NCBI GenBank assembly: GCA_020633315.1
Contig: JACKDV010000004.1
Coordinates: 320,071-384,070, forward strand
Reading direction: 5' to 3'
Length of the DNA: 64,000 nucleotides
Source of the DNA: Myxococcales bacterium
Lineage (GTDB): Bacteria; Myxococcota_A; Polyangia; Nannocystales; Nannocystaceae
The notes under the pieces were generated by a model. It made no database searches and was not told the DNA's origin. It saw only the letters and a list, made by a program, of their open reading frames with translations. Shown piece by piece: positions 1 through 16,770 of the stretch. Position numbers and translations under genes: made by a program. Position 1 is the first letter of the stretch. Each line of letters starts with the position of its first letter.

Positions 1-3000
1 CAGGGCGGAGACAGTAACGCCACAGCGGGAGCCCGGTGGGGCCTATCTCGCTTCAATGGGGCCGCCCTGCGAGCAGGGCGGAGACCGGGGGTGCCGGGAA
101 CCGGGGTCACGGCGTTGATGGTGCTTCAATGGGGCCGCCCTGCGAGCAGGGCGGAGACCGGTGAACGTGAGGGCGTGCGGCGAGCCTGCGTGAGCTTCAA
201 TGGGGCCGCCCTGCGAGCAGGGGCGGAGACCTCTCGTTCGCGGCCATCGAGAGAGCGAGGTTCACGCTTCAATGGGGCCGCCCTGCGAGCAGGGCGGAGA
301 CCTCGATTGACTTGAAAGTCAATCAGGTTTTCAACAGTGCTTCAATGGGGCCGCCCTGCGAGCAGGGCGAGACAGCTGGTGGCGACCTCGCACTGCTCCT
401 CTCGGCGGAGCTTCACGGCCCGCCCTGCGAGCAGGGCGGAGACTGGAGCTGATCAAGCGCTCCAAGGCCCGGGGTGGGCTTCAATGGGGCCGCCCTGCGA
501 GCAGGGCGGAGACGGATGACCGTCACCGCGGCGCCCACGGCCGAGGCGGCTTCAATGGGGCCGCCCTGCGAGCAGGGCGGAGACAACGTGGAGCGCGTCG
601 AAGAGAGGAAGAACGATGAAGCTTCAATGGGGCCGCCCTGCGAGCAGGGCGAGACACCCCGCAAGGGAAGGCGCTCACGACTGTGGGCCGCTTCAATGGG
701 GCCGCCCTGCGAGCAGGGCGGAGACCCCACCGCATGAAGAACCGTGCGCAGAACATCCGCAAGCTTCAATGGGGCCGCCCTGCGAGCAGGGCGGAGAACT
801 CCCTCGCGCCGCACGATGTCGCCATACGATTCCATGCTTCAATGGGGCCGCCCGCCCTGCGAGCAGGGCGGAACACGCCATGTGATAGCCTCCGCCGTGG
901 CTATCTCACGCTTCAATGGGGCCGCCCTGCGAGCAGGGCGGAGACCGGCCCGCTCGACGTGACCCCGACGCTGCTGATCTGGCTTCAATGGGGCCGCCCT
1001 GCGAGCAGGGCGGAGACCTGGACAAGCGAGGCGCCCACGACCTCGCCGGAAGGCTTCAATGGGGCCGCCCTGCGAGCAGGGCGGAGACGTGACCACAGGG
1101 TACCTGAGTCCGACGGCGAGTGCGGCTTCAATGGGGCCGCCCTGCGAGCAGGGGCGGAGACCGAGGAGAAGAGCACCGACCGCCCCACCCGGGGAAGCTT
1201 CAATGGGGCCGCCCTGCGAGCAGGGCGGAGACCGGGCTCTTCGTTCAGGTTGCGCTGCGTCTGTCGTCGTGTGCTTCAATGGGGCCGCCCTGCGAGCAGG
1301 GCGGAGACGCCATGGCGGGCATGTCCGGCGGGTTCGTGGGCCAGCTTCAATGGGGCCGCCCTGCGAGCAGGGCGGAGACGAGGTGCTCGACCGCGAACGA
1401 CCTTGGCCGACGAGCGCTTCAATGACGCCGCCCTGCGAGCAGGGCGGAGACGCGGCGAAGCTTCATGGCTGGCGTGTCGATGGAGCTTCAATGGGGCCGC
1501 CCTGCGAGCAGGGCGGAGACGCCCTTGGGCGGCGGCCGGATCGGGTGCGGATCACGCTTCAATGGGGCCGCCCTGCGAGCAGGGCGGAGACAACGGCGTC
1601 AGGCTGCGCAAGCGGAGCGTCAGGCGGCGCTTCAATGGGGCCCGCCCTGCGAGCAGGGCGGAGACGGATGTCTGAGCGTGTCGGCTTGGTCGCGGCACCC
1701 CGCTTCAATGGGGCCGCCCTGCGAGCAGGGCGGAGACGGGTCGCCGGGAGCGTGGTCGGCGGCACGGGATCGGGGCTTCAATGGGGCCGCCCTGCGAGCA
1801 GGGCGGAGACACACCTTTCCTCGCCGACGTCCAGCTCGACCACGACCTGCTTCAATGGGGCCGCCCTGCGGAGCAGGGCGGAGACCTCCGGTCCCCAGTC
1901 GTCCGGGATGTCCGTGTCGGCTTCAATGGGGCCGCCCTGCGAGCAGGGCGGAGACGCGCCAGGAGCCCACACCCACGCACCCCGGAGGCTTCAATGGGGC
2001 CGCCCTGCGAGCAGGGCGGAGACGAGCCGGGCGAGGTGGTGCTCGACATCATCGAGGCGCTTCAATGGGGCCGCCCTGCGAGCAGGGCGGAGACAGGGTC
2101 GGGCCTTTGCGGTGTGAGCACTCCAAGCGTGGAAGCTTCAATGGGGCCGCCCTGCGAGCAGGGCGGAGACGCGAGCAGGTGGCACGCGATGATTCTGGGC
2201 GAGGTGCTTCAATGGGGCCGCCCTGCGAGCAGGGCGGAGACAGCTCGGCGAGCGAGCCGGGTCCACCCGTCGACCGTGCTTCAATGGGGCCGCCCTGCGA
2301 GCAGGGCGGAGACCTTGAGAACACGACGCCATGCCCAATCGCTACCGCGTGCTGCTTCAATGGGGCCGCCCTGCGAGCAGGGCGGAGACGATCCCGCTTC
2401 CGCGGCCTCGGTCGCCGTCACGCGGCTTCAATGGGGCCGCCCTGCGAGCAGGGCGGAGACACACGAGCTTTCGTTGCCCTCCAGGCATACTGCGAGGCTT
2501 CAATGGGGCCGCCCTGCGAGCAGGGCGGAGACTCGGTCAGACTCCAAACACGGCGCGATCGGCCTCGAGCTTCAATGGGGCCGCCCTGCGAGCAGCAGGG
2601 CGGAGACTTGCGTAGCTGGTACAGCAGCTACGCACAGCACGACAGCTTCAATGGGGCCGCCCTGCGAGCAGGGCGGAGACGCGCGGCAAGCGTCTGGAGA
2701 TGCGCCCCGTTGAGTACGCTTCAATGGGGCCGCCCTGCGAGCAGGGCGGAGACGGGCCTCTTGCCGCGGCGCGGCCAGCATTCAGGTCGGCTTCAATGGG
2801 GCCGCCCTGCGAGCAGGGCGGAGACGTGGTAGCTCTGTACGAGCTGCTCCCGCAGGTGGAGGCTTCAATGGGGCCGCCCTGCGAGCAGGGCGGAGACATC
2901 TCATGCACGGCCTCTGGCTCCTCGGGGTACCCATAGCTTCAATGGGGCCGCCCTGCGAGCAGGGCGGAGACTCAGCGGATCCCGACCTGGACCCCATCGA

Positions 3001-3831
3001 CCGCTGCTTCAATGGGGCCGCCCTGCGAGCAGGGCGGAGACGCCGATGTCGATCACCCACCGGCCGAGGTACTCGCGCACGCTTCAATGGGGCCGCCCTG
3101 CGAGCAGGGCGGAGACATCCTGGCCCGTCCCGAGTGGGGCCCCATCATCGGGCTTCAATGGGGCCGCCCTGCGAGCAGGGGCGGAGACCCGCACAGGCAT
3201 GGTCGAGGGTATGGATCAGGGGCTTCAATGGGGCCGCCCTGCGAGCAGGGCGGAGACACACCATGACCCGGCAGCTCTGGGGCCTGACCCTGCGGCTTCA
3301 TGGGGCCGCCCTGCGAGCAGGGCGGAGACCGCAGGCGATCCATCGAGTCGACCGGATGCTCCGCCCTGCCCCGCCTGCGAGCAGGGCGGAGACCGAGGCA
3401 TCGAGCGAGCGGTGCGGGACCGGGCTTCAATGGGGCGGCTGCGACAGGGCGGAGACCGAGGCGTTCCCGCGCGCAGGCGACCATGGGCTTCACGGGGCCG
3501 CCTGCGAGCAGGGCGGAGACAGGGAGCGGACCCTGACGGTGCGCAGCCCTGCGAGCAGGGCGGAGACGAAAATCCTCGACCGGACCCGTGGGCGGCCCTT
3601 CAATGGGCAGCCGCCCTGCGAGCAGGGCGGAGACGACCGATCCCGCGCATCAATCCCCGCGGCCGCCTGCGGGGACGAACACGGCCACTTCAATGCGGGC
3701 ATGAGCCCGCCCTGCGAGCAGGGCGCGGGCGAGCACGGGCGGAGACGAGGCCGATCCCTTGCCGCAGGTCGACCAATGGGAGCCGCCCTGCGCTTCGGAG
3801 AATGGGGCCGCCCTGCGAGCAGGGCGGAGAC
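1..3831 (-). CRISPR. CRISPR array of about 54 repeat units. It runs off the window at position 1. The 36-bp repeat on the + strand is GCTTCAATGGGGCCGCCCTGCGAGCAGGGCGGAGAC (reverse complement GTCTCCGCCCTGCTCGCAGGGCGGCCCCATTGAAGC). Spacers are 35-38 bp. The last ~9 units (3296-3831) are progressively degenerate.
   Basis: Read directly: the repeat recurs more than 45 times with a 72-74 bp period. The six-frame track shows its recurring translations (LQWGRPASRAET, FNGAALRAGRR, SMGPPCEQGGD). The strand call rests on the reverse-complement repeat ending ATTGAAGC, which resembles the ATTGAAA(C/G) 3' handle of I-C and I-G repeats, plus an 8-bp stem CCGCCCTG/CAGGGCGG. Polarity is not certain; see findings. 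Confidence 0.95.
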
Positions 3832-4421
3832 TGCCGGTCCGCAACAGCTTACCATCATTGCCATTCTCGACCACCAATTCACGCGACCACCAAAACCGAC
3901 ATATCCCCGGTCCCGTGTTCAACACCTATGCAGTTCCCAGACATCATCGTAGCCCCCCTTGGCACTCGGAATTCTCCACTTTGCACGCAAGACCGGGGTT
4001 TCGCACGGCGAGATGCCGCGTGATTTCCAGTCACCCTATCACACCCACCGACCCCCCCACCATACCGGAGATCCCGCGGCCATGCCCGCGCCAATGCCTC
4101 GCAGCACCTCCCCGGACCTCCCGCTCGCCGATTCCACAGGCCATCGAGACCTCCCGGAACATCCCCAACCCCATTGCACTGCGCCCCGTGACCTCCCGGG
4201 ACATCTCCAACCCCACCGCACGGCCCGTCGAGACCTCCTGGGCATCCCCAACCCCATTGCACTGCGCCCCGCGACCTCCCCGGGTCTCTCCAATCCCCCA
4301 TGCACAGCCCCGCCGGATCTCCCGGGACCTCGCGCCCCTGACCCCTTCGAGCCAATCGCACTTTTTCGTCGACCCGCAGTGATCGAATCCCGTCCTCGCG
4401 CCACGTTACCTCCACACCGTC
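3832..4421. promoter_or_regulatory. Non-coding flank between the array and cas4-cas1. It is AT-richer next to the last repeat and has a C-rich top strand. It would be the leader if the array is transcribed from the minus strand.
   Basis: No credible ORF. The two + strand ORFs (3759..4382, 3959..4525) are proline-rich, low-complexity translations of C-rich DNA. Composition shifts immediately after the last repeat. Confidence 0.4.
4140..4312. repeat. Two tandem imperfect direct repeats of about 83 bp (about 80 % identical). The core is CGAGACCTCC..ATCCCCAACCCCATTGCACTGCGCCCCG(T/C)GACCTCCCGGG.
   Basis: Seen by eye: copy A starts near 4145 and copy B near 4228, each with the shared core ATCCCCAACCCCATTGCACTGCGCCCCG. 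Confidence 0.7.
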
Positions 4422-6272
4422 ATGCCCGAGCGCATCCGCCATTCACCGCCCAGCGAGTCTGCCGATCTCGTCCCCGTACGAATGTGCAACGAGCTGGTCT
4501 ACTGCGAGCGTTTGTTCTACCTTGAGCACGTCCAGGGCTACTTCGTCGACTCCTCCGACACGGTGCACGGCCGCTCCCAGCACGAGCGCGCCGCGACCAA
4601 GGGCCGCACCACCACCGTCACCCCTCCCACGGCCGAGCCCGACCCCGACGACCCCACCCTCTCCGAGCTGCTCGAGGCTCCCCGCCGCTGCGTCACCCTG
4701 GAGTCCGCCAGCCTCGGCGTGCGTGGCCAGGTCGACCTCGTCGAGCTGCACGACGACGAGGCGGTGATCATCGAGGCCAAGCACGGTGCATCGCCGTCCC
4801 ACGACGACCACCGCTGGTACGACCATCCCCTGCCCTACCGCGCCTGGCCGGCCGACGTGGCCCAGCTCGGCCTCTACATGGCGCTGCTGCGCGAGTCGGG
4901 CGTGCCCTGCCACCGCGCCCAGCTGCTGTACCGCAAGGACCGTCACCGCACCGAGATCCCCTGGTCCGCGGAGCTCGAGCGCTTCGTCCACGCAGTGGTC
5001 CGGCGCGCCCGCGAGGTGGCAGCGCTGCCCAAGCCCCCGGCCCCGCTCGAGCTCAGCCCCAAGTGCCCGCGCTGCTCGCTGCACACCATCTGCCTCCCCG
5101 ACGAGCACCTCGCCCTCGCCCGCGAGGCGGCCGGACAGACCGTGCCGCCGCTGCGCCGCATCGTGCCCGGCGCGGACGACCGCGCGGTGCTCCACGTGCT
5201 CACTCCCGGCAGCGCCCTGCGCAAGGACGGCCAGGGCATTCGCCTCAGCGTGCGTGGGATCCCCGATCCGCAGCGGATCCTCGTCAAGGATCTGGCCCAG
5301 GTCGCCCTGTACGGGCCCAGCCAGATCACCGCGCAGTGCATGACGATGCTGCTGCTCGAGGACGTCCCCGTGGCCCACCACACGGGCTCCGGCCGCCTGC
5401 TGGGCATGACGATGCCGCTGGCCACCCGCAACGTCACCCTGCGTCGCGCCCAGTTCCGCACCGCCGACGATCCCGAGCGCTGCCTCGTCGCCGCCCGAGC
5501 CCTGGTCGTGGCCAAGATCCGCAACCAGCGAACCGTGCTCCGCCGCTACCGCACGGGTCACACCGCCGACGATCCCCTCGACGAGCGGCTCCCGGCCTGG
5601 GCCGATCCCACCGCCGACGATCCCGAGACCCAGGCCGCCGTGGAGCAGCGCGCCACCACCATCGGCGAGGCGCTCGCCCGCATGCGCAACGCCTGGCGCG
5701 GCGCCCAGCGAGCCACGGACATCGACGCCCTACGCGGCCACGAGGGCGACGCCGCCGCGACCTACTTCGGCGCCCTGCCCTCGATCCTGCCCGCCCCGTG
5801 GCCCGACGAGCTGCGCGGACGCTCGCGTCGCCCGCCTCGCGATCGCGTCAACGCCATGCTCGGCTTCGGCTACGCCATGCTCACCCGCGACGCCACCGCG
5901 GCCCTCGGTCGCGTGGGCCTCGATCCCATGGTCGGCCTGTTCCACACCACCATCCCCGGCCGCCCGGCCCTGGCCCTCGATCTGCTCGAGCCCTTCCGCC
6001 CCGCCTGGGTCGATGCCTCCATCCTGCGCCTGCTCGCCACGGGTGGGATCACCCCGGAGTGCTTCATCCGCTCCGGCGACGGTGTGTTCCTCACCGATCC
6101 CGGCCGCCGCGCCCTGGTGGCCGCCTACGAGCGCCGCGCCGACGAGCGGATCACCCACCCTCGCTTCGGCTACCGCATGAGCTACCGCCGCATGCTCGAG
6201 CTCGAGGCCCGCGTGCTCGCCAAGTGGATGGCCGGCGAGATCGACGAATTCTCTCCCCTGCTCACCCGCTAG
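4422..6272 (+). CDS. cas4/cas1: Cas4-Cas1 fusion protein (616 aa)
   Basis: The N-terminal part is Cas4-like (RecB-family nuclease) with an N-terminal Cys and a C-terminal Cys cluster (KCPRCSLHTIC) that fits a 4Fe-4S site. The C-terminal 330 aa are Cas1-like. It lies immediately upstream of cas2. A Cas4/Cas1 fusion is typical of type I-G (I-U). Confidence 0.85.
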   Translation: MPERIRHSPPSESADLVPVRMCNELVYCERLFYLEHVQGYFVDSSDTVHGRSQHERAATKGRTTTVTPPTAEPDPDDPTLSELLEAPRRCVTLESASLGVRGQVDLVELHDDEAVIIEAKHGASPSHDDHRWYDHPLPYRAWPADVAQLGLYMALLRESGVPCHRAQLLYRKDRHRTEIPWSAELERFVHAVVRRAREVAALPKPPAPLELSPKCPRCSLHTICLPDEHLALAREAAGQTVPPLRRIVPGADDRAVLHVLTPGSALRKDGQGIRLSVRGIPDPQRILVKDLAQVALYGPSQITAQCMTMLLLEDVPVAHHTGSGRLLGMTMPLATRNVTLRRAQFRTADDPERCLVAARALVVAKIRNQRTVLRRYRTGHTADDPLDERLPAWADPTADDPETQAAVEQRATTIGEALARMRNAWRGAQRATDIDALRGHEGDAAATYFGALPSILPAPWPDELRGRSRRPPRDRVNAMLGFGYAMLTRDATAALGRVGLDPMVGLFHTTIPGRPALALDLLEPFRPAWVDASILRLLATGGITPECFIRSGDGVFLTDPGRRALVAAYERRADERITHPRFGYRMSYRRMLELEARVLAKWMAGEIDEFSPLLTR

Positions 6273-6276
6273 CCCG

Positions 6277-6573
6277 ATGCGCCATCACTTCATCGTGGCC
6301 TATGACATCAGCGATCCCCAGCGCCTCCGCCAGGTCCACAAGACCGTGCGTGACTTCGGCACGCCGCTCCAGCTCTCCGTGTTCGCCTGTACCCTCTCTT
6401 CCCTCGACCGCGCCACCTTGCAGGCACGCCTGCTGACGATCATCGACACCACCGCCGACCAGGTGATGTTCGTGCGCCTCGCCCCGGTCCACCCCGGTGA
6501 CACCCGCCCCCCCGGCTGCGAGACCCTCGGCCGGCCCCTGCGAGCTCGGATCGACAGCGCCATCGTGACCTGA
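6277..6573 (+). CDS. cas2: Cas2 (98 aa)
   Basis: The N-terminus HFIVAYDISDPQRLRQVHKTVRDFGTPLQLSVFAC matches the Cas2 pattern (V.YDI...R..v.k.L..yG.r.Q.SVFeC). It starts 4 bp after cas4/cas1. Confidence 0.9.
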   Translation: MRHHFIVAYDISDPQRLRQVHKTVRDFGTPLQLSVFACTLSSLDRATLQARLLTIIDTTADQVMFVRLAPVHPGDTRPPGCETLGRPLRARIDSAIVT

Positions 6574-7104
6574 TCACCTCGGCCCACTTCGGGGCTCGCC
6601 GAACCCGAGACCCCTCTGCTCTACTCCGGTGCCCCGATATGCCAACCTGATCGACCGTCTTTAGTCACTCATCTCCCAGTCATGAACCCAGACGGATGAC
6701 CTGACTTCAACAGCGACGGCAATAGAGCCCCCTGGTACGAGATTCAGCTGATGACTGTCTCTCGCGCCGCGAAGACGCTCGATTTCTGTTGACAGAGTAG
6801 GTAGGTGGGGTTCACCCTCCGAGCATGGCAGGGTCAAAGTACTACGGAGGCGTCCGGCCCGTAAAGAGAATTTTCAGGAACCTCATCGAGGTACTGGCCT
6901 GGCTGCTCTTCCCCAACCCAGAACCTCCCCAACAGCCACCAAAACCTCCGCCTCAGAAGCCGCCTATCGGCTTCTAGAAAGTCCAACAACTTCCTCATGG
7001 ACACGGGGCGGCCCCATTGAAGTCGGGCCGGTCGTCTGCGGAGTACACCAGCCAACACCAATTTCCGCCCCGGTCCGCCTAGCCGACCACAGGTCCCCCC
7101 CGTC
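6574..7104 (+). promoter_or_regulatory. AT-rich intergenic region after cas2, about 530 bp. It is leader-like, contains a TTGACA hexamer near 6790, and is probably the promoter region of the cas7-cas5/6-cas3-cas8 operon.
   Basis: GC is markedly lower than the flanking genes and there is no credible ORF. The minus-strand ORF 6834..7214 is an artefact that reads through the repeat remnant. Confidence 0.5.
7001..7023 (+). repeat. Solitary degenerate CRISPR repeat remnant in the opposite orientation to the main array. A 17-nt stretch, GGGCGGCCCCATTGAAG, matches the reverse-complement repeat exactly.
   Basis: Read directly: ACACGGGGCGGCCCCATTGAAGTC versus repeat reverse complement ..CGCAGGGCGGCCCCATTGAAGC. 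The minus-strand ORF translation here contains LQWGRP, the peptide signature of the repeat. Confidence 0.75.
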
Positions 7105-8295
7105 ATGACCGCTCCCACGCCCACCGTCGATTCCCTCCACGCCGCCGTCACCGGTGACGTGGTGGCCTTCCGCCTCCGCGCCCGTCTCCAGCCCGCCGGA
7201 GGCCCCGGGGACAAGGTGTTCCCGCCGACCTACGCCACGGGCCAGGATGACCGCGACCACGAGACCAAGTACGCCACCGAGGAGCGCATGATCGACGGCC
7301 GTCGCGTGCCCTCGGTGCTGCTCGACTCGGTCGCCTCGCAGGCCAACCGCATGGAGCTGGCCCTGCTCCGGGCCCGTGAGCGCGACGGCCTGAGCCTGCC
7401 CCTGATCGCGGTGGACTTCGGGCCCACCCTGCCCGAGCTCGGCCGGATCAGCGCGCTCGAGGCCCCCCACCGCGTCTACGATGCGATCCTGCGCGATGCC
7501 ACCCTCGACGGCACGGCCTTCCGCGCCTCGGAGCTCGGCCGCCGCCTCACCGATGCCAGCCCGTCCGACGCCCGAGCGATGCTCGAGCACTGCCCCACCG
7601 CCCTGCTCTTCGGCGCCTGGGACTCCACCGGCCCCCGCGGCGGCCGAGGTCACAAGTTCCAGCGCGCGCTGGTCAGCGAGGTGGTCGGCATCGACTTCGC
7701 GACGGGCACCAAGGTGGGCAGTCGCATCGACCCGCTGCAGATCTCGGCCAGCGTGCGCCTGAGCATCCCCAAGGAAGACTCCGACGCATGGACCGTGGAC
7801 GCCACCGGCAAGTCCAAGCAGCGCCCGTCCGAGGTCAACCACTCCAACATCGCCCCCACCCGCGACGGGGAGGCCGGCGGGGTCACCCTCGACCACGCGC
7901 TGCACACCGCAGTGCTGTCCCTGCCCGCCCTGCGACGGCTTCGCTTCGGCAACTGGGACGACGCCCGCAGCGACGCCGCCCGCACCCTGCTGGCCGCGCT
8001 GGGCCTGCTCGCCCTCGTGCTGCAGCGCCGGGTCGGCTACGACTTCCGCAGCCGCTGCACCCTGGTGCCCGAGGGCCCCGTGGCGCTCGAGCAGGTGGGC
8101 GCCGACGGCAGCCGCGACCCCCTGCCCCTGTCGGTCGCCGAGGCCCGTGCCCTCTTCGATGCCGCGCTCGCCCGCGCCCGCGAGCAGGGCGTGCCCTGGG
8201 CCGAGGACGAGGTGGTGCTTCGGCCCATGCCCAAGCTGGTGCAGCTGGTCGAGGCGAGCCAGCAGCTCATGGCCGCGGGTGGCCCGGCGGACTGA
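7105..8295 (+). CDS. cas7: Cas7 of type I-G (Csb1 / GSU0053-like), 396 aa
   Basis: Its size and its position immediately upstream of the Csb2 homologue match the csb1-csb2 pair of I-G/I-U systems. I could not verify the family match by hand. Confidence 0.55.
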   Translation: MTAPTPTVDSLHAAVTGDVVAFRLRARLQPAGGPGDKVFPPTYATGQDDRDHETKYATEERMIDGRRVPSVLLDSVASQANRMELALLRARERDGLSLPLIAVDFGPTLPELGRISALEAPHRVYDAILRDATLDGTAFRASELGRRLTDASPSDARAMLEHCPTALLFGAWDSTGPRGGRGHKFQRALVSEVVGIDFATGTKVGSRIDPLQISASVRLSIPKEDSDAWTVDATGKSKQRPSEVNHSNIAPTRDGEAGGVTLDHALHTAVLSLPALRRLRFGNWDDARSDAARTLLAALGLLALVLQRRVGYDFRSRCTLVPEGPVALEQVGADGSRDPLPLSVAEARALFDAALARAREQGVPWAEDEVVLRPMPKLVQLVEASQQLMAAGGPAD

Positions 8296-9898
8296 GATGC
8301 TCTGCCTGCGCCTGGAGCTGCTCACGGGTCGCTATGTGGCCTGTGCGTTCAACGATCGCGATCGCGTGGAGTGGCCCCCCCACCCCGCGCGCGTGTTCTC
8401 GGCCCTGGTCGCCGCGCTGCACGACGGCGAGCCCCTCGAGGCGGAGCGGGCGGCCCTGCGCTGGCTCGAGTCGCTGCCGCCCCCCGCCCTGCACCACTCC
8501 CCCGCCTCGGTGCGTGACGCCAAGGTCTTCTACGTGCCCGTCAACGACAAGGCCCTCACCGACAAGGCCACCGTGAGCAACGCCTGGGCCCGCGTCCTCG
8601 ATCCTGCGCTGCCCCCCAAGGCGCGGGCCAAGGCCGAGGCACGCCTGGCCGACGCCTACGAAAAGGCCGGCGCCACCGAGGCCACGCGGCCCAAGAAGGT
8701 GCGCGAGATCGTCGACCACCTGCTGCCGCACAGCCGCACCAAGCAGCCCCGAGCCTTCCCCTCGGCGACCCCACACGACCCCGCGGTGTGGCTGTGCTGG
8801 GACGCCGAGCCCGAGCCCTCCGTCCGCGCCGGGCTGGAGGCGCTGCTGCGCCGGCTCGTCCGCCTCGGCCACAGCAGCTCCATGGTCGCGGCCCGCCTGG
8901 TCGACGATGCCCCGGCCCCGGCCTTGCGGCCCGACCCCGAGGGGCCCGAGCGGCTGCGCTGGGTGGGCCCGGGACAGCTGGCCGCCCTCGAGGCGCTCCA
9001 CGCCGCCGCCCCCTACTCCGAGCAGCGGGTGATGCCCTACGTGGTGGCCCGCTACCGCCACGCCGAGGCACGCACCGAGCCCGCGCGCTCGAGCTTTGCG
9101 GCCGACTTCCTCGTGCTGCGCCGGGTGGATGGACCGCGGCTGCCCGTGCTGGCCACCGAGCGCGTGGCCGATGCGGTGCGCCGGGCCCTGATGGCCCACG
9201 CCGAGGATCCCCGCGCACCGCTGCTGTCGGGCCACGCCCCCGACGGCGCGCCCCTGCAGGACGACCACCTGGCCGTGGTCCCGCTGCCCTTCGTCGGGGC
9301 TCGCCACGCCACCGGTGATCTGCTCGGCGTGGCGCTGGTGCCCCCCGCCGGGCTCTCGCGCGGCCAGCTGCGCCCGCTCCATGCCGCTCTGGCCCGCTGG
9401 GAGGCCGCGGGTGGCGAGCCCAGGGGGCAAGACCCGCGCTGCGTGCTCAACCTGGGTCGGCTCGGCCGGTGGACGCTCGAGCGCAGCCTCGAGCCCTCGC
9501 CGCTCCACAACCTGCGCGAGCCCGCCTGGACCCGCCTCGATCGCCGCTGGGTGAGCGTCACCCCGGTGCTGCTCGATCGCCACCCGGGCTCGCTCGGCGA
9601 CCCCAAGCCCTCGGCCCGGCGCCGGGCCGTGCGACGAGCCGACGAGATCATCTCCGCCGCCTGCGAGCGCATCGGGCTGCCGGCGCCCGAGCGCATCGAG
9701 CTCTCGCTCGATCCTCCGCTGCGCGGCACCGAGCCCGCCCCTCGCTTCGAGGCATGCCGTCGCGACCCCGCCGACCGCCGCCCGCTGCTGCACCTTCGGC
9801 TCACCTTCCCCCGGCCGGTCGGCGGCCCCGTGCTGCTGGGAGCCGGCCGCTACCGCGGCCTGGGCCTGCTGCGTCCCATGGGAGGCGAAGCCCCGTGA
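8285..9898 (+). CDS. csb2: Cas5/Cas6 fusion of type I-G (Csb2 / GSU0054-like), about 537 aa
   Basis: The N-terminus MLCLRLELLTGRYVACAFNDRDRVEWPPHPARVFSALVAAL matches the Csb2 signature (GRYHA...VEWPPSPwRLfrALVA). Start is taken at the internal Met, so the gene overlaps the end of cas7 by 11 bp. Confidence 0.8.
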   Translation, partial: RRTEMLCLRLELLTGRYVACAFNDRDRVEWPPHPARVFSALVAALHDGEPLEAERAALRWLESLPPPALHHSPASVRDAKVFYVPVNDKALTDKATVSNAWARVLDPALPPKARAKAEARLADAYEKAGATEATRPKKVREIVDHLLPHSRTKQPRAFPSATPHDPAVWLCWDAEPEPSVRAGLEALLRRLVRLGHSSSMVAARLVDDAPAPALRPDPEGPERLRWVGPGQLAALEALHAAAPYSEQRVMPYVVARYRHAEARTEPARSSFAADFLVLRRVDGPRLPVLATERVADAVRRALMAHAEDPRAPLLSGHAPDGAPLQDDHLAVVPLPFVGARHATGDLLGVALVPPAGLSRGQLRPLHAALARWEAAGGEPRGQDPRCVLNLGRLGRWTLERSLEPSPLHNLREPAWTRLDRRWVSVTPVLLDRHPGSLGDPKPSARRRAVRRADEIISAACERIGLPAPERIELSLDPPLRGTEPAPRFEACRRDPADRRPLLHLRLTFPRPVGGPVLLGAGRYRGLGLLRPMGGEAP

Positions 9899-12726
9899 GC
9901 GCTCCCCCGGCCACGCTCTCGGCCGACGACTTCGCCGCCTTCGTTCGCGAGGTGACGGGCCACGATCCCTTCCCCTGGCAGCGGCGATTGCTCCGTACCG
10001 TGCTCGACGACGGCTGGCCCGACCTGCTCGACCTCCCCACCGGGACCGGCAAGACCACCGCCATCCTCGTGGCCCTGTTCGCGCTCGCCCTGCACCCCCA
10101 GCGCTTCCCTCGGCGGATCGCCCTGGTGGTGGACCGGCGGATCATCGTCGATCAGGTCGACGGCTACGCCCGTCGGATCCGCACCGCCCTCGACGACGAC
10201 GCGCGCCCCACTGGCCGCCGCGTGGCCCAGCACCTGCGCGCGCTGGCCTCGGCCCCCGATGTCGACCCCGTCCGCGTGGTGCACCTGCGCGGTGGCATCC
10301 TCCGCGACGACGCCTGGCTGGGCACGCCCGACCAGCCCACCATCCTCGCCTCCACCGTCGACCAGGTGGGCTCGCGGCTGCTGTTTCGCGGCTACGGCGT
10401 GTCGGAGAGCATGCGCCCGGTCCACGCCGGCGTGCTGGCCCGCGACACCCTCTACCTGCTCGACGAGGTCCACCTCGCCACCGCCTTCGAGGAGACCCTC
10501 TCGCGGCTCCAGGGCACCTACGCCGCGTGGGCCGAGCGCCGCACCGGGCGACCGCTGACCGTCGTCCGCATGAGCGCCACCGCCCGCACCACGGGCCCGC
10601 CGGCGCGGACGAGCTTCGGCCTGGACGACGACGACCGCCGGCACCCCGTGCTCGCGCGGCGGCTCGGCGTGTCGCGCCTGGCCACGCTCGAGTGGGTGCC
10701 CACCCGCGCGGGCACCGACGCGAGCAGCCAGGCCCGCAACCGGGAGCTGCTGGCCCAGATCGCGATCGAGCGCGTCGAGCAGGCCCTCGCCGAGGGGGCC
10801 AGCTCGGTGGGCGTGGTGCTCAACCGCGTGGACACGGCCCGCCGCGCCGCGGCCCGGCTCGAGGGACGCGACGAGCTCGAGCTCGAGCTGCTCACCGGGC
10901 GCATGCGAGCCTGGGAGAAGACCGCCACGCAGGCGCGGGTGCAGCAGCGGGTGGGCGCCGGCGTGCCTCGCCCGAAGGGAGCGCGCCCGGTGGTGGTCGT
11001 GGCCACGAGCTGCATCGAGGCCGGCGCCGACCTGGACTTCGATGCGCTCGTCACCGAGGCCGCCAGCCTCGATGCCCTGCGGCAGCGCTTCGGCCGTCTG
11101 AACCGCCTGGGCGAGCACGGCCGTAGCTGGGCGTGGATCCTCGGGCGCAAGGATCAGCTCGGCGCCCGGGCCGAGCCCGACCCGATCTACGGCGAGGCCC
11201 TGCGCAACACCTGGGCCTACCTCGAACAGCTCGCCGACGACGGCCGCGTCGACTTCGGCCTCGAGGCCCTGCCCCTGCCGCCGCCCGACCGGGGCGCCAG
11301 CCTGCTGCCTCCGAGCCCGGAGGCGCCCGTGCTGTTCCCCAGCGTGCTCGACATGTGGGCCGAGACCCGGCCCGCGCCGCACCCCGACCCGGATCCCTCG
11401 CTGTGGCTGCACGGCAAGGGACGGCCGGCCGAGCGCGACGTACAGCTGGTGTTCCGGGCCGACCTGCCCCCAGCCACCGATGACGAGGCCGTGCGCTCGC
11501 GTGCAGCCGAGGCCCTCGAGCGCCTGCCGCCGGTGAGTGACGAGGCCGTCGACGTCCGCCTCGGCCGGGAGCTACGGGACGTGCTCGGCTCGGGTCCCGT
11601 GTGGCGCTGGACCGCCGCGGGGCTCGAGGCGGTCGGCCCCGATGCGCTGCGTCCCGGCGATACCGTGATCATGGACGCTCGCGCCGGCGGCCTGCGCCGG
11701 GGCACCTGGGATCCCGCCGCCGACCGGCCCGTGTCCGATCTGGCCGAGCGAGCGCTGTGGGCCACGCGGGGCCTGGCTCGGCTGCGGCTGTCGAAGGCCA
11801 CGCTGCCCGAGCCGCTCCACGCTGGTCTGCCGGCCCCGCCGAGCGCCGACGATCCCGAGGGCCTCGAGCCCACGCGAGCCGAGCACGAGGCATGGCTCGA
11901 CGGCCTGGCCGCTCGCCTCGATGGCGTCGATGCCAGCTGGCATCCGCTGCTGCGCGCCATCGCCGGGGCCGGTCGACACCGCCGGCTGCTCCTGGGCATC
12001 GACGGCGCGGGCCAGCCCATGGCGTGGGTCCTCGTAGCACCTCCCCGGCGTGCGGCCGAAGCCACCACCGAGGATGCGGTCTCCGCCTTCAGCGGGCTCG
12101 AGGTCGCGCTGCACGATCACCTCGCCGACGTGGAGGCATGGGCCGAAGCCTTCGCCACCGGGGCGGGGCTCGGGCCCGAGCTCGCGGCCGACCTCGCCCT
12201 CGCCGGCCTGCTGCACGACCTGGGTAAGGCCGACCCTCGCTTCCAGGCCCTGCTGCGCGGCGGCGATCCCATCGCGGCCGTCGGCGGCCCGCCCCTGGCC
12301 AAGTCGCGGCAGCTCGGCTCGGTGCAGACCCGGGCCCGTGCCGAGCAGCGCAGCGGCTGGCCCCCCGGGCTGCGCCACGAGCTGGTCTCGCTCGCCCTGC
12401 TCGACGCCAGCGAGGCCCTCCGCGCCCGCGCCCACGACCTCGAGCTGGTGCGCCACCTCGTCGCCAGCCACCACGGCTGGTGTCGCCCCTGGGTCCCCGC
12501 GATGCTCGACCCCGAGCCCACCGTGGTGCGGGTGCAGATCGCCGGCATCGCGGCCGAGGTCCGCACCGACGCGCTCGACGACGCCTTCGGGGCCCGGTGT
12601 GCCGCTCGCTTCCATCGCCTGTGTCGTCGCTACGGCTGGCACGGGCTCGCCTACCTCGAGGCCCTGCTGCGGCTGGGAGATCATCGCGCCAGCGCCACGC
12701 CGGGCGCCCGACCGGAGGCATCGTGA
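9895..12726 (+). CDS. cas3: Cas3 helicase with C-terminal HD nuclease domain (about 943 aa)
   Basis: It has Walker A DLPTGTGKT and a DEVH box (LLDEVHL). A C-terminal HD motif (LLHDLGKADPRFQ) is present. A C-terminal HD domain is characteristic of type I-G Cas3. The GTG start overlaps the csb2 stop (GTGA). Confidence 0.85.
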   Translation: MSAPPATLSADDFAAFVREVTGHDPFPWQRRLLRTVLDDGWPDLLDLPTGTGKTTAILVALFALALHPQRFPRRIALVVDRRIIVDQVDGYARRIRTALDDDARPTGRRVAQHLRALASAPDVDPVRVVHLRGGILRDDAWLGTPDQPTILASTVDQVGSRLLFRGYGVSESMRPVHAGVLARDTLYLLDEVHLATAFEETLSRLQGTYAAWAERRTGRPLTVVRMSATARTTGPPARTSFGLDDDDRRHPVLARRLGVSRLATLEWVPTRAGTDASSQARNRELLAQIAIERVEQALAEGASSVGVVLNRVDTARRAAARLEGRDELELELLTGRMRAWEKTATQARVQQRVGAGVPRPKGARPVVVVATSCIEAGADLDFDALVTEAASLDALRQRFGRLNRLGEHGRSWAWILGRKDQLGARAEPDPIYGEALRNTWAYLEQLADDGRVDFGLEALPLPPPDRGASLLPPSPEAPVLFPSVLDMWAETRPAPHPDPDPSLWLHGKGRPAERDVQLVFRADLPPATDDEAVRSRAAEALERLPPVSDEAVDVRLGRELRDVLGSGPVWRWTAAGLEAVGPDALRPGDTVIMDARAGGLRRGTWDPAADRPVSDLAERALWATRGLARLRLSKATLPEPLHAGLPAPPSADDPEGLEPTRAEHEAWLDGLAARLDGVDASWHPLLRAIAGAGRHRRLLLGIDGAGQPMAWVLVAPPRRAAEATTEDAVSAFSGLEVALHDHLADVEAWAEAFATGAGLGPELAADLALAGLLHDLGKADPRFQALLRGGDPIAAVGGPPLAKSRQLGSVQTRARAEQRSGWPPGLRHELVSLALLDASEALRARAHDLELVRHLVASHHGWCRPWVPAMLDPEPTVVRVQIAGIAAEVRTDALDDAFGARCAARFHRLCRRYGWHGLAYLEALLRLGDHRASATPGARPEAS

Positions 12727-13739
12727 CCCACGACGCACATCCCCTGCCCCTGCCTGGCCTGGACGGCCTCGATCCGCTGGGCTTCCTCGCGGCGCTGGGC
12801 TGCCTGGTGGCCACCACCGAGCACAGTCGGGCCGAGGGAGCGCGCGAGCCCTCGATGAGCTGGCAGCTGGGCGGACGACCGATCCCCGTGCTGCACGGAC
12901 CGTGGGGCCATGGGGACGCGTTGGTCGAGGTCCTCCACGACGACCTCCGCCGGCTGGCCGGGCGCGGGTCCGACGAAGAGTCGAGAGCTCCGAGGGATCC
13001 GTTCCTCGAGCTGTCGTATCCCGATGCCGACGGCAAGCCCGTGCACGATCTCAAGCCACCGCCCTCGGTGCTGCGGGAGCTCGCGCAGGGGCTGGTGGAT
13101 CAGGCCACGCCGGAGCGACGGCGGACGGTCGACTGGCTGTCCGCCGTGCTGACCGACGTGGCCGTGGATGGCAGCGGCGCGGCCAAGCCCTTTGCCCTGC
13201 ACTTCACCGCGGGCCAGCAGCGCTTCGGCGTGGTGGCGCTCGAGCTGCTCGACGGCAAGGCCGGGGCCAAGCCCGGCTCAGCGGGGCGGCCGGTCGACGC
13301 CGAGGACCTGCGGATCGCCCTGCACGGGCCGTGGCCCGACGATCGCACGCTCAAGGTGTTCGGCTGGAGCCCCACGCAGGATCGTGCCTATGCGCTGCGA
13401 GCCGTCGACCCCTCGGGCGACACCAAGCTCGGCACCCCCGGCGCCGACTGGCTGGCGCTGCGGGGGATCGGGCTGCTGAGCAGCGCGCCCGTGCGGGATC
13501 GGATCGCCACCAGCGGCGTGCACGGGAGCTGGAAGCGCGGCACCTGGAGCTACCCGCTGTGGCCGATGCCGCTGACGGCCGAGGTGGCACGATCGCTGCT
13601 GCGACATCCATCGGTGGCCCCGCCCGACGAGCGGCGAGGCAGCAGCACCCTGCCGCTCGGGGTGGAGGTGCTCACCTGCCGGATCACGCGCTCCGAGCAG
13701 GGTGGCTACGGAGCGCTGTCGCGACCCTCTCGGGGATGA
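12723..13739 (+). CDS. cas8u2: Cas8u2/Csx17-like large-subunit candidate. It is short, about 338 aa, and possibly truncated.
   Basis: The N-terminus ..LPGLDGLDPLGFLAALGCLVATTEH resembles the Csx17 N-terminal motif. It is the last gene of the cas operon and its GTG start overlaps the cas3 stop. Length is about half of typical Csx17 proteins. Confidence 0.45.
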   Translation: MTHDAHPLPLPGLDGLDPLGFLAALGCLVATTEHSRAEGAREPSMSWQLGGRPIPVLHGPWGHGDALVEVLHDDLRRLAGRGSDEESRAPRDPFLELSYPDADGKPVHDLKPPPSVLRELAQGLVDQATPERRRTVDWLSAVLTDVAVDGSGAAKPFALHFTAGQQRFGVVALELLDGKAGAKPGSAGRPVDAEDLRIALHGPWPDDRTLKVFGWSPTQDRAYALRAVDPSGDTKLGTPGADWLALRGIGLLSSAPVRDRIATSGVHGSWKRGTWSYPLWPMPLTAEVARSLLRHPSVAPPDERRGSSTLPLGVEVLTCRITRSEQGGYGALSRPSRG

Positions 13740-14274: not shown

Positions 14275-16770
14275 GTGACCACGCGAGCGCGATCGATGGT
14301 GGAGGCGCTCCCCTCGGCGCCGCTGAATCTCGGTCGATATCGCCTACTCGGCGAGATCGGGCGAGGAGGCATGGCCGAGGTGTGGCTCGCCAGCACCACC
14401 GGCCCCACCGGTGTGCACAAGCTGCTGGTGATCAAGCGGCTCAAGCGAGGCCACGAGGACGAGCCCGAGCTCGTGACGATGTTCCTCGACGAGGCCCGCA
14501 TCGCGGTGCGCCTGGCCCACCCCAACGTGGTGCAGACCTACGAGGTCGACACCGACGACGGCCTGCCGTTCATCGCGATGGAGTACCTCGACGGTCAGCC
14601 GCTGCACCGGGTGCTCCGGCGCTTCGCGAGGCGAGGCGGCCTCTCCCGCGATCTTCGGCTGTGGATGCTGGCCGAGCTGCTGCAGGGCCTCCACCATGCT
14701 CACGAGCTGCGCGACTACGACGGGACCCCGCTGCGCGTCGTCCACCGCGACGTCAACCCGCAGAACGTCTTGGTCACCTTCCACGGCGAGATCAAGCTGA
14801 TGGACTTCGGCATCGCGAAGGCGATGGACTCGGTGGCGCACACCGACGTGGGCATGTTCAAGGGCAAGCTGGCCTACATGGCGCCCGAGCAGGCCCGCGG
14901 CGGCACCGAGCTCGACCGACGCGTCGACCTCTTCGCGGTGGGCGTGATGATGTGGGAGGCGCTGACCGAGGAGCGCATGTGGGGCGGACGCACCGACATC
15001 GAGATCGCCACCGCGCTCTGTGAGGGCTGGGTGCCGCCGCTGCCCGAGTCGGCGTCGATTCCCGATCCGCTCCGCGAGATCTGCACCAAGGCGATCGCCG
15101 TGGATCCCGACGCTCGATGGCCGGACGCCGCCTCGATGCACGAGGCGCTGCGAGACTGGCTCGACGAGCACGGCGGCGCCCCGAGCCCCGCGGCCCTCGG
15201 CCGGTCGATGGCCGAGTGCTTCACCGATGAACGCGCCCGCCGAGAGGTCCTGATCCAGCGCCACGCCCGTGATCCCACGGGAGCCGCCCCCGACCGCGGG
15301 TGGGATCCGCCTGTCTCCTCACCCGAGGACGAGACGCGCCGGATCACGCCGCCGCTCCCCACGACCCGCCCCGTCCCGATGGTGTCCGAGCCTCCCCCGT
15401 CCTCGACCCGGCCCCGCCGGTGGTGGGCGGCCGCGGCCCTGGTCGGAGCAGCCAGTCTCGCCGCCGTCGCGACGGCGCTCGTGCACGACTCGCCGGACGA
15501 CGCCGAGCCGACGGTGGCCTCCGATCCGAGGGAGGATCCCGAGGCGAGCACGAGGGCGTCCCCCACCGCCGAGCCCTCCTCGACGGGGACCCGCTGCACC
15601 ACCGAGGGTCCTCCCGTCGAGCTGACCGGTGAGCTGGAGGCCGACGCGACCCTCGGCTGCGATCGCCGATACCTGCTGCGCTACACCGTCCGCGTCCCGC
15701 GTGGAGTCACCCTCACCATCGAGCCCGGCACCACGATCCTCGGAGATCCGGTGACCAAGGGCACCCTGGTGGTCCAGCCCGGAGGGCGGCTGGTGGCCGA
15801 GGGGCGGGCCGACGCGCCCATCGTGCTCACGAGCGCCCTGCCCGAGGGACGACGGGCTCCGGGGGACTGGGGTGGAGTGCTGGTGCTGGGGCACGCTCCG
15901 ATCAACCTCCGCGACCACGCTGGCCAGCCGATCCTCGGCCGGGTGGAGGGCCTGACCGAGGGCGGGACCTTCGGCGGTGACGACCCGGACGACGACAGCG
16001 GGGTCCTCCGCTACCTCCGCATCGAGTACAGCGGAGTGGAGCTGGCCCCCAACAACGAGGTCAACGGCTTGACCCTCGCCGGGGTGGGCCGCGGGACCCG
16101 GCTCGACCACGTCCAGGTGCGACACACCGCCGACGATTGCTTCGAGTTCTTTGGCGGCACCGTCTCGGGCTCGCACCTGCTGTGCGACGACCCGGGGGAC
16201 GACGGCTTCGACTGGGATCTCGGCTACCAGGGAGAGCTGCGCTTCCTCGTCGTGCGGGCCCTAGACCCCGGGCGTGGGCAGCACGGGATCGAGGGAGACG
16301 GCGACCCCCGGGGTGAGCGGGCAGAGCCCCGCAGTCGCCCGCACGTCTCCAACGCGACCGTCTGCGGCACGACGAGCCGCGGGGCTCCGCGCTTCGGCAT
16401 GCTGCTGCGTCGGGGCACCGACGCCCGCGTCGAGCGCTCGGTGGTGCTGGGCTTCGACGCCACGATCGAGCTGCGCGATCGCTTCACCACCCTGACCCTC
16501 GAGGACTCGGTGCTCGGGCTCCCGCTGGTGGACCCGGCCGGCGCCGCCGAGCGACCGTTCGACCTCGAGGCGATGCTCCGCGCCCCCGAGCGTCTCCACG
16601 CGATCGGGGCACCGGCGGACCTCGACTGCGCGAGCCCGTCGATCGACGCCCTGCGACCGGAGCGACCCCTGCGAGCCGAGGATCCCGACGGCCAGACGAG
16701 CTACCGGGGGGCCTTCCGCGACCGCGACGATCGCTGGGACGAGGGCTGGGCGGTGTGGAGCGACGATTGA
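14275..16770 (+). CDS. Ser/Thr protein kinase (Hanks-type) with a C-terminal beta-helix-like domain, 831 aa
   Basis: Kinase motifs GEIGRGGMAEVW, HRDVNPQNVLV, DFGIAKA and YMAPEQ are present. The C-terminal 400 aa are Gly-rich repeats resembling a parallel beta-helix. Confidence 0.85.
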   Translation: MTTRARSMVEALPSAPLNLGRYRLLGEIGRGGMAEVWLASTTGPTGVHKLLVIKRLKRGHEDEPELVTMFLDEARIAVRLAHPNVVQTYEVDTDDGLPFIAMEYLDGQPLHRVLRRFARRGGLSRDLRLWMLAELLQGLHHAHELRDYDGTPLRVVHRDVNPQNVLVTFHGEIKLMDFGIAKAMDSVAHTDVGMFKGKLAYMAPEQARGGTELDRRVDLFAVGVMMWEALTEERMWGGRTDIEIATALCEGWVPPLPESASIPDPLREICTKAIAVDPDARWPDAASMHEALRDWLDEHGGAPSPAALGRSMAECFTDERARREVLIQRHARDPTGAAPDRGWDPPVSSPEDETRRITPPLPTTRPVPMVSEPPPSSTRPRRWWAAAALVGAASLAAVATALVHDSPDDAEPTVASDPREDPEASTRASPTAEPSSTGTRCTTEGPPVELTGELEADATLGCDRRYLLRYTVRVPRGVTLTIEPGTTILGDPVTKGTLVVQPGGRLVAEGRADAPIVLTSALPEGRRAPGDWGGVLVLGHAPINLRDHAGQPILGRVEGLTEGGTFGGDDPDDDSGVLRYLRIEYSGVELAPNNEVNGLTLAGVGRGTRLDHVQVRHTADDCFEFFGGTVSGSHLLCDDPGDDGFDWDLGYQGELRFLVVRALDPGRGQHGIEGDGDPRGERAEPRSRPHVSNATVCGTTSRGAPRFGMLLRRGTDARVERSVVLGFDATIELRDRFTTLTLEDSVLGLPLVDPAGAAERPFDLEAMLRAPERLHAIGAPADLDCASPSIDALRPERPLRAEDPDGQTSYRGAFRDRDDRWDEGWAVWSDD

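Follow-up and report, generated by a model that had tools for sequence, protein, structure and literature searches.

The locus considered here lies at the left end of a stretch of 64,000 nucleotides (nt) from a Myxococcales bacterium of the family Nannocystaceae (assembly GCA_020633315.1, contig JACKDV010000004.1, positions 320,071 to 384,070), and this whole stretch is called the window below. It carries a CRISPR array, a leader and a set of CRISPR-associated (cas) genes. The genes are those of type I-G, namely a Cas4-Cas1 fusion, Cas2, Cas7g/Csb1, Csb2 and a Cas3g with a C-terminal HD domain, and the cas locus gave matches to the NCBIfam models NF049935, TIGR01573, TIGR02570, TIGR02165, TIGR02621 and NF049934. 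Array and leader are of the usual type I-G kind, here in an uncultured myxobacterium of marine type, and only the leader-proximal block of scrambled units is abnormal; the locus is not a new kind of system. The features are listed in Table 1.

Table 1. Features of the type I-G locus, with positions counted from the first letter of the window
Feature	Position	Strand	Remarks
Intact type I-G array part	1..3257	-	45 full 36-nt repeats, 1 edge-cut repeat and 45 spacers of 32-40 nt
Scrambled leader-proximal block	3258..3831	-	574 nt; 8 damaged units and 2-3 repeat fragments; spacer remnants 12-52 nt
Leader-adjacent repeat R1	3792..3831	-	31 perfect nt, then CTCC insertion ahead of GAAGC
Conserved leader core	3832..4030 (right edge approximate)	-	57% GC vs 71% in the window; homologous to array-adjacent sequence of all related loci
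Variable non-coding stretch	4031..4421	.	Between leader core and cas4/1 start
cas4g/cas1g fusion	4422..6272	+	Pfam; NCBIfam NF049935, 568.5 bits vs cut-off 560; divergent from array
cas2	6277..6573	+	Pfam, NCBIfam; identical protein in 14 short-read metagenome contigs
PsiR1	6988-7023	+	Repeat 3' half kept, one mismatch; only such match outside array
PsiS ('spacer')	7024-7060	+	36-37 nt
PsiR2	7061-7095	+	11/15 nt of repeat 5' part kept
cas7g/csb1	7105-8295	+	Pfam, NCBIfam
csb2 (cas5-cas6 fusion)	8297-9898	+	Pfam, NCBIfam
cas3g	9892-12726	+	Pfam, NCBIfam
'Cas3-extension' protein, 338 aa	12723-13739	+	NCBIfam NF049934

The array spans positions 1 to 3831, and its left end is cut by the window edge, past which it extends. 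The repeat is 36 nt long and reads GCTTCAATGGGGCCGCCCTGCGAGCAGGGCGGAGAC on the plus strand and GTCTCCGCCCTGCTCGCAGGGCGGCCCCATTGAAGC in reverse complement. The repetition is far above chance level, with 45 matches of an 18-nt half-repeat in the window against 0.00 expected. In the intact part the units follow each other with a period of 68-76 nt. Here 33 of the 45 repeats are perfect and 12 carry lesions of 1-4 nt, which amount to about nine indel or duplication events and about four substitution events. These lesions are mainly homopolymer-length changes and duplications of 3-4 nt. Lesioned repeats become fewer from left to right (in successive thirds 6/13, 4/14 and 2/18; p about 0.05 for the trend), and this gradient agrees with growth at the leader end, whereas the leader-proximal block contradicts it. 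Related arrays are far cleaner than that of the window, e.g., 117 of 119 repeats are perfect in locus L008. A search against Rfam gave only a sub-threshold match to CRISPR-DR16, on the minus strand. No protospacer was found in phages, plasmids, IMG/VR, the remainder of the window or the related loci, and therefore spacer ages and the side on which the PAM (protospacer-adjacent motif) lies are unusable as evidence. Several spacers (302-338, 876-909 and 2608-2644, the last reading TGCGTAGCTG...CAGCTACGCA) are internally palindromic and may have been taken up from hairpin-forming target sites.

The block next to the leader is of a different kind. Between 3295 and 3831, read on the minus strand, its eight units open with GTCTCCGCCCTGCTCGCA at 3831, 3746, 3634, 3567, 3520, 3456, 3393 and 3329, with periods of 85, 112, 67, 47, 64, 63, 64 and 72 nt, and two repeat fragments that keep the 3' half only lie at 3774-3792 and about 3654-3680. 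The units keep the GTCTCC...CGCA half of the repeat, while the 3' stem arm and the ATTGAAGC handle are damaged. Small indels, truncations and partial duplications, direct as well as inverted, make up the lesions, and the adjoining spacers are shortened. Almost all of this damage is confined to the leader-distal repeat half, with its 3' stem arm, CCCC element and 8-nt ATTGAAGC handle, and to the first part of the spacer next to it. R1, the repeat that adjoins the leader, still folds its hairpin; it is directly followed by the spacer-less fragment at 3774-3792, and its CTCC insertion was seen in no other unit. The count of roughly nine decayed units with spacers of 25-54 bp at the cas-proximal end, given in the original prediction, was thus close to what is found here.

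The damage is strongly asymmetric. Over the 18 nt of the 5' half, which faces the leader, six of the eight units are perfect and each of the other two has a single indel, whereas the 3' half is damaged in 8/8 units (against 2/8 for the 5' half; Fisher p = 0.007). The lesions of the intact part show the reverse distribution, with nine in 5' halves and four in 3' halves (p = 0.036 against the block). Several lesions are common to neighbouring units: a shortened G-run in the 3' stem arm to units 3393, 3456 and 3520 (CAGG-CGG in 3393 and 3520, CA--GCCG in 3456), a CTGC insertion to units 3567 and 3634, and GGC-T-C to unit 3746 and the fragment at 3774-3792. Units 3456 and 3520 both have 30-nt spacers with CCTCG ends. 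Of the 21 pairs of block spacers, three exceed 98.5% of the control pairs in likeness, which reflects a weak to moderate likeness among three spacers, and this hints, as far as sequence comparison goes, at duplication of whole units.

On the evidence of its sequence the array is transcribed from the minus strand, leftwards, as had been predicted, because three independent lines agree: the repeat geometry, the related loci and the leader homology. On the minus strand, repeat positions 5-24 form a hairpin with a stem of 8 bp and a loop of 4 nt; CCCC comes next, and ATTGAAGC after it. In the one type I-G system studied biochemically, the repeat is 36 nt long and Csb2 cuts 4 nt 3' of the hairpin, which leaves an 8-nt 5' handle (PMC9638904). 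The same geometry of hairpin, 4 nt and 8-nt handle is present on the minus strand of the window array, and processing by Csb2 is predicted from it. On the plus strand the hairpin has only 4 nt behind it, so that an 8-nt handle is impossible there.

The closest genomes belong to Nannocystaceae (Enhygromyxa, Nannocystis and Paraliomyxa), with Cas4/1 identities of 52-69%, and arrays were compared in 13 related loci (L002-L008, L010, L011, L013, L014, L017 and L031). Twelve of these have the array upstream of cas4/1, oriented as in the window, and L013 has it downstream of cas2. In 13/13 the handle end faces away from the cas genes and the cas-proximal repeats are clean, and the far end is truncated or degenerate wherever it was captured (L008, L010, L013, L014, L017 and L031). 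Growth at the cas-proximal end is also indicated by L006 (about 6700-8398), in which all 23 cas-proximal units share a single-base repeat variant. In L017 (9094-9494) six units adjoining the leader carry a variant and yet the leader-adjacent repeat itself is the consensus, so that simple first-repeat copying does not account for this variant block. The arrays of Enhygromyxa salina, Paraliomyxa miuraensis and Nannocystis metagenome-assembled genomes share with that of the window a 36-nt repeat whose transcribed strand ends in ...CCCATTGAAGC, spacers of about 35 nt, a homologous leader of about 200 nt and a position upstream of, and divergent from, cas4g/1g-cas2-cas7g-csb2-cas3g. They differ in that their cas-proximal repeats are clean and only the far end, where captured, is truncated or degenerate, whereas 8-10 leader-proximal units are scrambled in the window. 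Degeneration at the leader end was seen in 0/13 related arrays, and the original prediction was right to regard it as an anomaly.

The sequence to the right of the array has the properties of a leader. No coding frame was found in the 590 nt from 3832 to 4421, and the part up to about 4030 is non-coding, lower in GC, adjoins the first repeat and is conserved in a fixed register. About 200 nt adjoining the array are conserved across 11 aligned loci, with the window aligning from the first base after the repeat (alignment A1), and the motifs CGCAAC, CACGC, GTGTTCA...TTCCCAGACA and GAATTC..CTTTGCACGCAAGACCGGGG..GCCGCGTGA occur there; the closer relatives L029-L031 and L033 share the leader motifs with the window. 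Between the repeat end and CTTTGCACGCAA there are 148 nt, in the window (3831 to 3979) as well as in L031 (343 to 491). To judge from these alignments, the leader is in place and the leader-repeat junction is ancestral. The alternative once offered, that rearrangement had separated the array from its leader, is thereby refuted. The leader had been placed at 3832-4421, and this holds for the conserved core, which a comparison with related leaders, proposed at the time, has now identified as homologous, while the remainder (4031-4421) is a variable stretch. Three copies of GCACGC/GCGTGC, two of them as an inverted pair around 3984-4022, and a palindrome-like CCGACATGTCG (in the window CCGACATATCC) lie in the leader core and are candidate protein-binding sites. 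A search for a sigma-70 consensus promoter or a terminator in 3200-4500 gave none, although the consensus may not suit myxobacterial promoters. The variable stretch, which presumably contains the cas4/1 promoter, includes a 42-bp tandem repeat of about 4.3 copies (4144-4326). At the matching place the relatives have unrelated tandem repeats with other periods (L031 555-640; L029 about 200-235; L033 about 283-315), and thus this stretch looks, in sequence at least, like a hot spot of repeat expansion.

These results leave little room for a plus-strand array whose leader lies beyond window position 1 and whose decayed end is an ordinary trailer abutting cas4/1. Decay does normally mark the trailer, and the array has its other end beyond the window. 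However, the plus strand cannot provide the handle, the family's conserved leader occupies 3832-~4030, and the decayed end of the relatives is cas-distal wherever captured, so that this explanation is hardly credible. Ordinary trailer degeneration resembles the block in having truncated and mutated repeats at one array end, but it is leader-distal, diffuse and confined to 1-2 units, whereas the block is at the leader end, involves about 10 units and is structural and half-specific. Terminal decay of the trailer type was rejected as the origin of the block, which adjoins a conserved leader and whose lesions are half-specific and structural.

The block might also be older than the intact array. 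In one version of this, damage to the first repeat was followed by ectopic insertion of new spacers at about 3257-3295, where the first intact repeat lies; in the other, a decayed array next to the cas genes was joined, through a deletion, to a second, active array that lost its own leader. In type II-A, spacers are known to integrate ectopically once the leader-anchoring site is lost, and this would likewise produce a fossil block that separates the leader from the growing part. The lesions of the intact part also become sparse toward 3257, as if the youngest units were there (p about 0.05), although the same gradient is predicted if the array grew from the leader end and the block was damaged in place. 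On the other hand, the leader-facing half, taken as a clock, has two lesions in 144 nt in the block and nine in 810 nt in the 45 intact repeats. The leader-facing 18 nt are therefore as clean as in the other 45 repeats, and by this measure the block would be no older than the rest of the array. Unlike what is expected of the type II-A case, leader and leader-repeat junction are both undamaged here, and the block gives no impression of greater age; nor were two tandem arrays or a second leader found among the relatives. An older block is accordingly considered improbable. 'Decay', the term of the original prediction, also does not hold in the sense of age, as the leader-facing halves are no more mutated than the rest and the lesions are structural and restricted to the other half.

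Another possibility is that the block is an artefact of assembly or of a long-read or hybrid consensus, in which mixed reads with different newest spacers gave garbled repeats and short chimeric 'spacers' and the true array is normal. A study of activated sludge that combined Nanopore and Illumina reads yielded 51 Myxococcota metagenome-assembled genomes with a mean N50 of 574 kb (PMC8518188), and it may be where the sequence comes from. The window sequence comes from a metagenome-assembled genome, in NCBI the Cas4/1 protein is annotated only from 'MAG: Myxococcales bacterium', the species is heterogeneous in strains across samples (single-nucleotide polymorphisms and a 469-bp presence/absence polymorphism), and the anomaly is located at the end expected to be hypervariable, without a counterpart in the 13 related arrays. 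Moreover, the lesions of the array are mostly indels, while the short-read contigs of the same species differ from window positions 4519-9905 by substitutions only (99.75-100% identity, no indel, 0 to 6 substitutions each). The last comparison can also be read the other way, since it leaves a unique flank of 5.4 kb free of indels, and frameshifted genes were sought in the 64-kb window and none was found; poor polishing of the assembly, as judged by frameshifts, was rejected for this reason. A consensus of strains should leave both repeat halves clean and scramble the spacers alone, whereas one half is clean and the other damaged. Lesions common to neighbouring units and absent from the 45 other repeats further argue against a systematic base-calling error. 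Exact look-ups with Cas4/1 and with a leader ORF, aimed at a second copy of the array, gave no record. None of the 14 same-species contigs carrying the identical Cas2 extends to the leader, scans of metagenomes with a leader 22-mer and with the 36-nt repeat gave 0 matches each, and a six-frame query of 3258-4130 against a protein collection gave no match. On balance an artefact is unlikely, but it is the strongest of the competing explanations and has to be taken seriously.

The explanation tentatively favoured here, and quite possibly the correct one, is that the block is a real local rearrangement tied to the integration end of the array, in which acquisition is now stalled. Transcription from the leader (3832-~4030) leftward would give a minus-strand precursor CRISPR RNA (pre-crRNA), and the 574 nt of the array nearest the leader (3831-3258) would represent 8-10 repeat-derived units hit by local structural mutation, through a separate process that acted near the leader. 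Duplication of whole units was probably part of the history of the block. The cause could be errors made during integration at the second, spacer-side site or during the repair of that site, or slippage and template switching over the palindromic repeat, or both, in a lineage whose productive acquisition has stalled. Most of the block units would then fail to yield properly handled crRNAs, and the 45 downstream spacers would be expressed only via read-through of the block. Since the unique CTCC insertion of R1 was copied nowhere, the last lesion would not have been followed by any further spacer uptake at the normal site. The suggestion that acquisition was lost at this end is in this respect plausible but unproven.

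Several points weigh against such a rearrangement. The block was seen in one metagenome-assembled contig, and no single mechanism reproduces the order of its lesions, which are not nested toward the leader, with truncated units farther from it than near-complete ones. The likeness among the spacers is modest: three pairs out of 21 reach the 1.5% tail of the null distribution or fall below it. Some lesions create or lengthen hairpins, e.g., that of the 3393 unit at -29 kcal/mol, but by our own estimate they are no more frequent than expected by chance in DNA of 70% GC. Three other processes were considered for the block and rejected: nested inheritance of a mutated first repeat, which does not fit the lesion order; uniform neutral decay, with which the clean leader-facing halves are at odds; and the 'edge effect' of unequal crossing-over in tandem arrays, as the central spacers are all unique.

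Inaccurate duplication of repeats has also been reported for types I-E and I-B. In type II-A it occurs when the determinants of the second site (the 'ruler') are altered, and the asymmetry is the same as that of the block (PMC6895254). However, those cases are laboratory mutants, and the lesions of the block are not nested, so that the simple model does not fit. In a stronger form of such an explanation, the block would be the natural footprint of an adaptation machinery that damages its own array. Repeated faulty leader-distal attacks or half-site integrations by Cas4/1-Cas2 on the leader-nearest repeats, followed by error-prone repair, would scramble the leader-distal halves and spare the leader-facing ones. 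This version is rather unlikely; if true, it would amount to an integrase-inflicted mutational process able to kill an array from its growing end.

The block units might also be functional, as crRNA-like regulators of the CreA/CreR type that steer the effector to sites with a partial match, cas promoters for instance. In several type I subtypes, degenerate mini-CRISPRs that act in this way adjoin the cas genes (10.1101/2023.03.10.532045), and a good candidate is present elsewhere in the locus, at 6988-7095. The block shares with the CreA/CreR mini-CRISPRs its degenerate repeats near cas genes but differs in having no partial target flanked by a PAM, which the element at 6988-7095 has (10.1101/2023.03.10.532045; 10.1101/2024.01.05.574328). 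The best matches of the block spacers in the window are 17-18/23, without a TTN PAM, and equal to those of control spacers. In addition, the wrong half of the upstream repeats is kept, the 5' handles are damaged, and ten tandem units are unlike the usual architecture with one spacer. A regulatory function of the block is thus very unlikely.

The candidate at 6988-7095 is a degenerate mini-CRISPR on the plus strand and forms the end of a 469-bp insert between cas2 and cas7 (6626-7094). This insert is polymorphic among strains, being 100% identical in five independent short-read contigs and absent from two others and from the relatives. The stem arms kept by PsiR1 and PsiR2 (CGGGGCGG and CCGCCCCG) are complementary to each other and differ from the array stem (CAGGGCGG and CCGCCCTG) by a compensatory pair. 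Neither pseudo-repeat can fold a hairpin of its own, and hence their processing is uncertain. PsiS has a partial target 160 nt upstream within the insert, on the minus strand (6861 to 6825), in which the first 8 nt are perfect and 19 of the first 23 positions match. A TTA, in keeping with the TTN PAM of type I-G, precedes the target (with it, 6825-6864), and the target covers the start of a 50-aa open reading frame (ORF; 6825-6977) with a hydrophobic helix, for which no homologue was found. A perfect TTGACA lies upstream of the ORF start (6791-6796). CreA/CreR-type candidates have been reported for type I-U, the former name of I-G (10.1101/2023.03.10.532045), and the sequence of the insert makes it a candidate for a CreA/CreR/CrePA-like architecture in a type I-G locus.

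As for the cas genes, none of the six cas-locus proteins scanned (4422-13739) matched the Cas8g/Csx17 model. The related loci L029 and L030 have a gene set equal to that of the window (cas4/1-cas2-cas7g-csb2-cas3g-'Cas3-extension'), and thus the absence of a recognisable Cas8g/Csx17 looks like a variant of the whole clade and not a defect of the window locus. A Ser/Thr kinase gene follows the cas locus both in the window (14275-16770) and in L029.

The locus is a useful counter-example to array orientations called from degeneracy. Orientation predictors take repeat degeneracy as a mark of the trailer and would choose the wrong strand here, whereas the right one follows from the geometry of the repeat and the homology of the leader. 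Should the block be an artefact, it would caution against reading the leader-proximal ends of arrays in metagenome-assembled genomes at face value. If it is real, an array can be disabled from its leader end with the cas genes and the leader intact, and damage specific to one half of the repeat would implicate the spacer-side integration step as a source of mutation.

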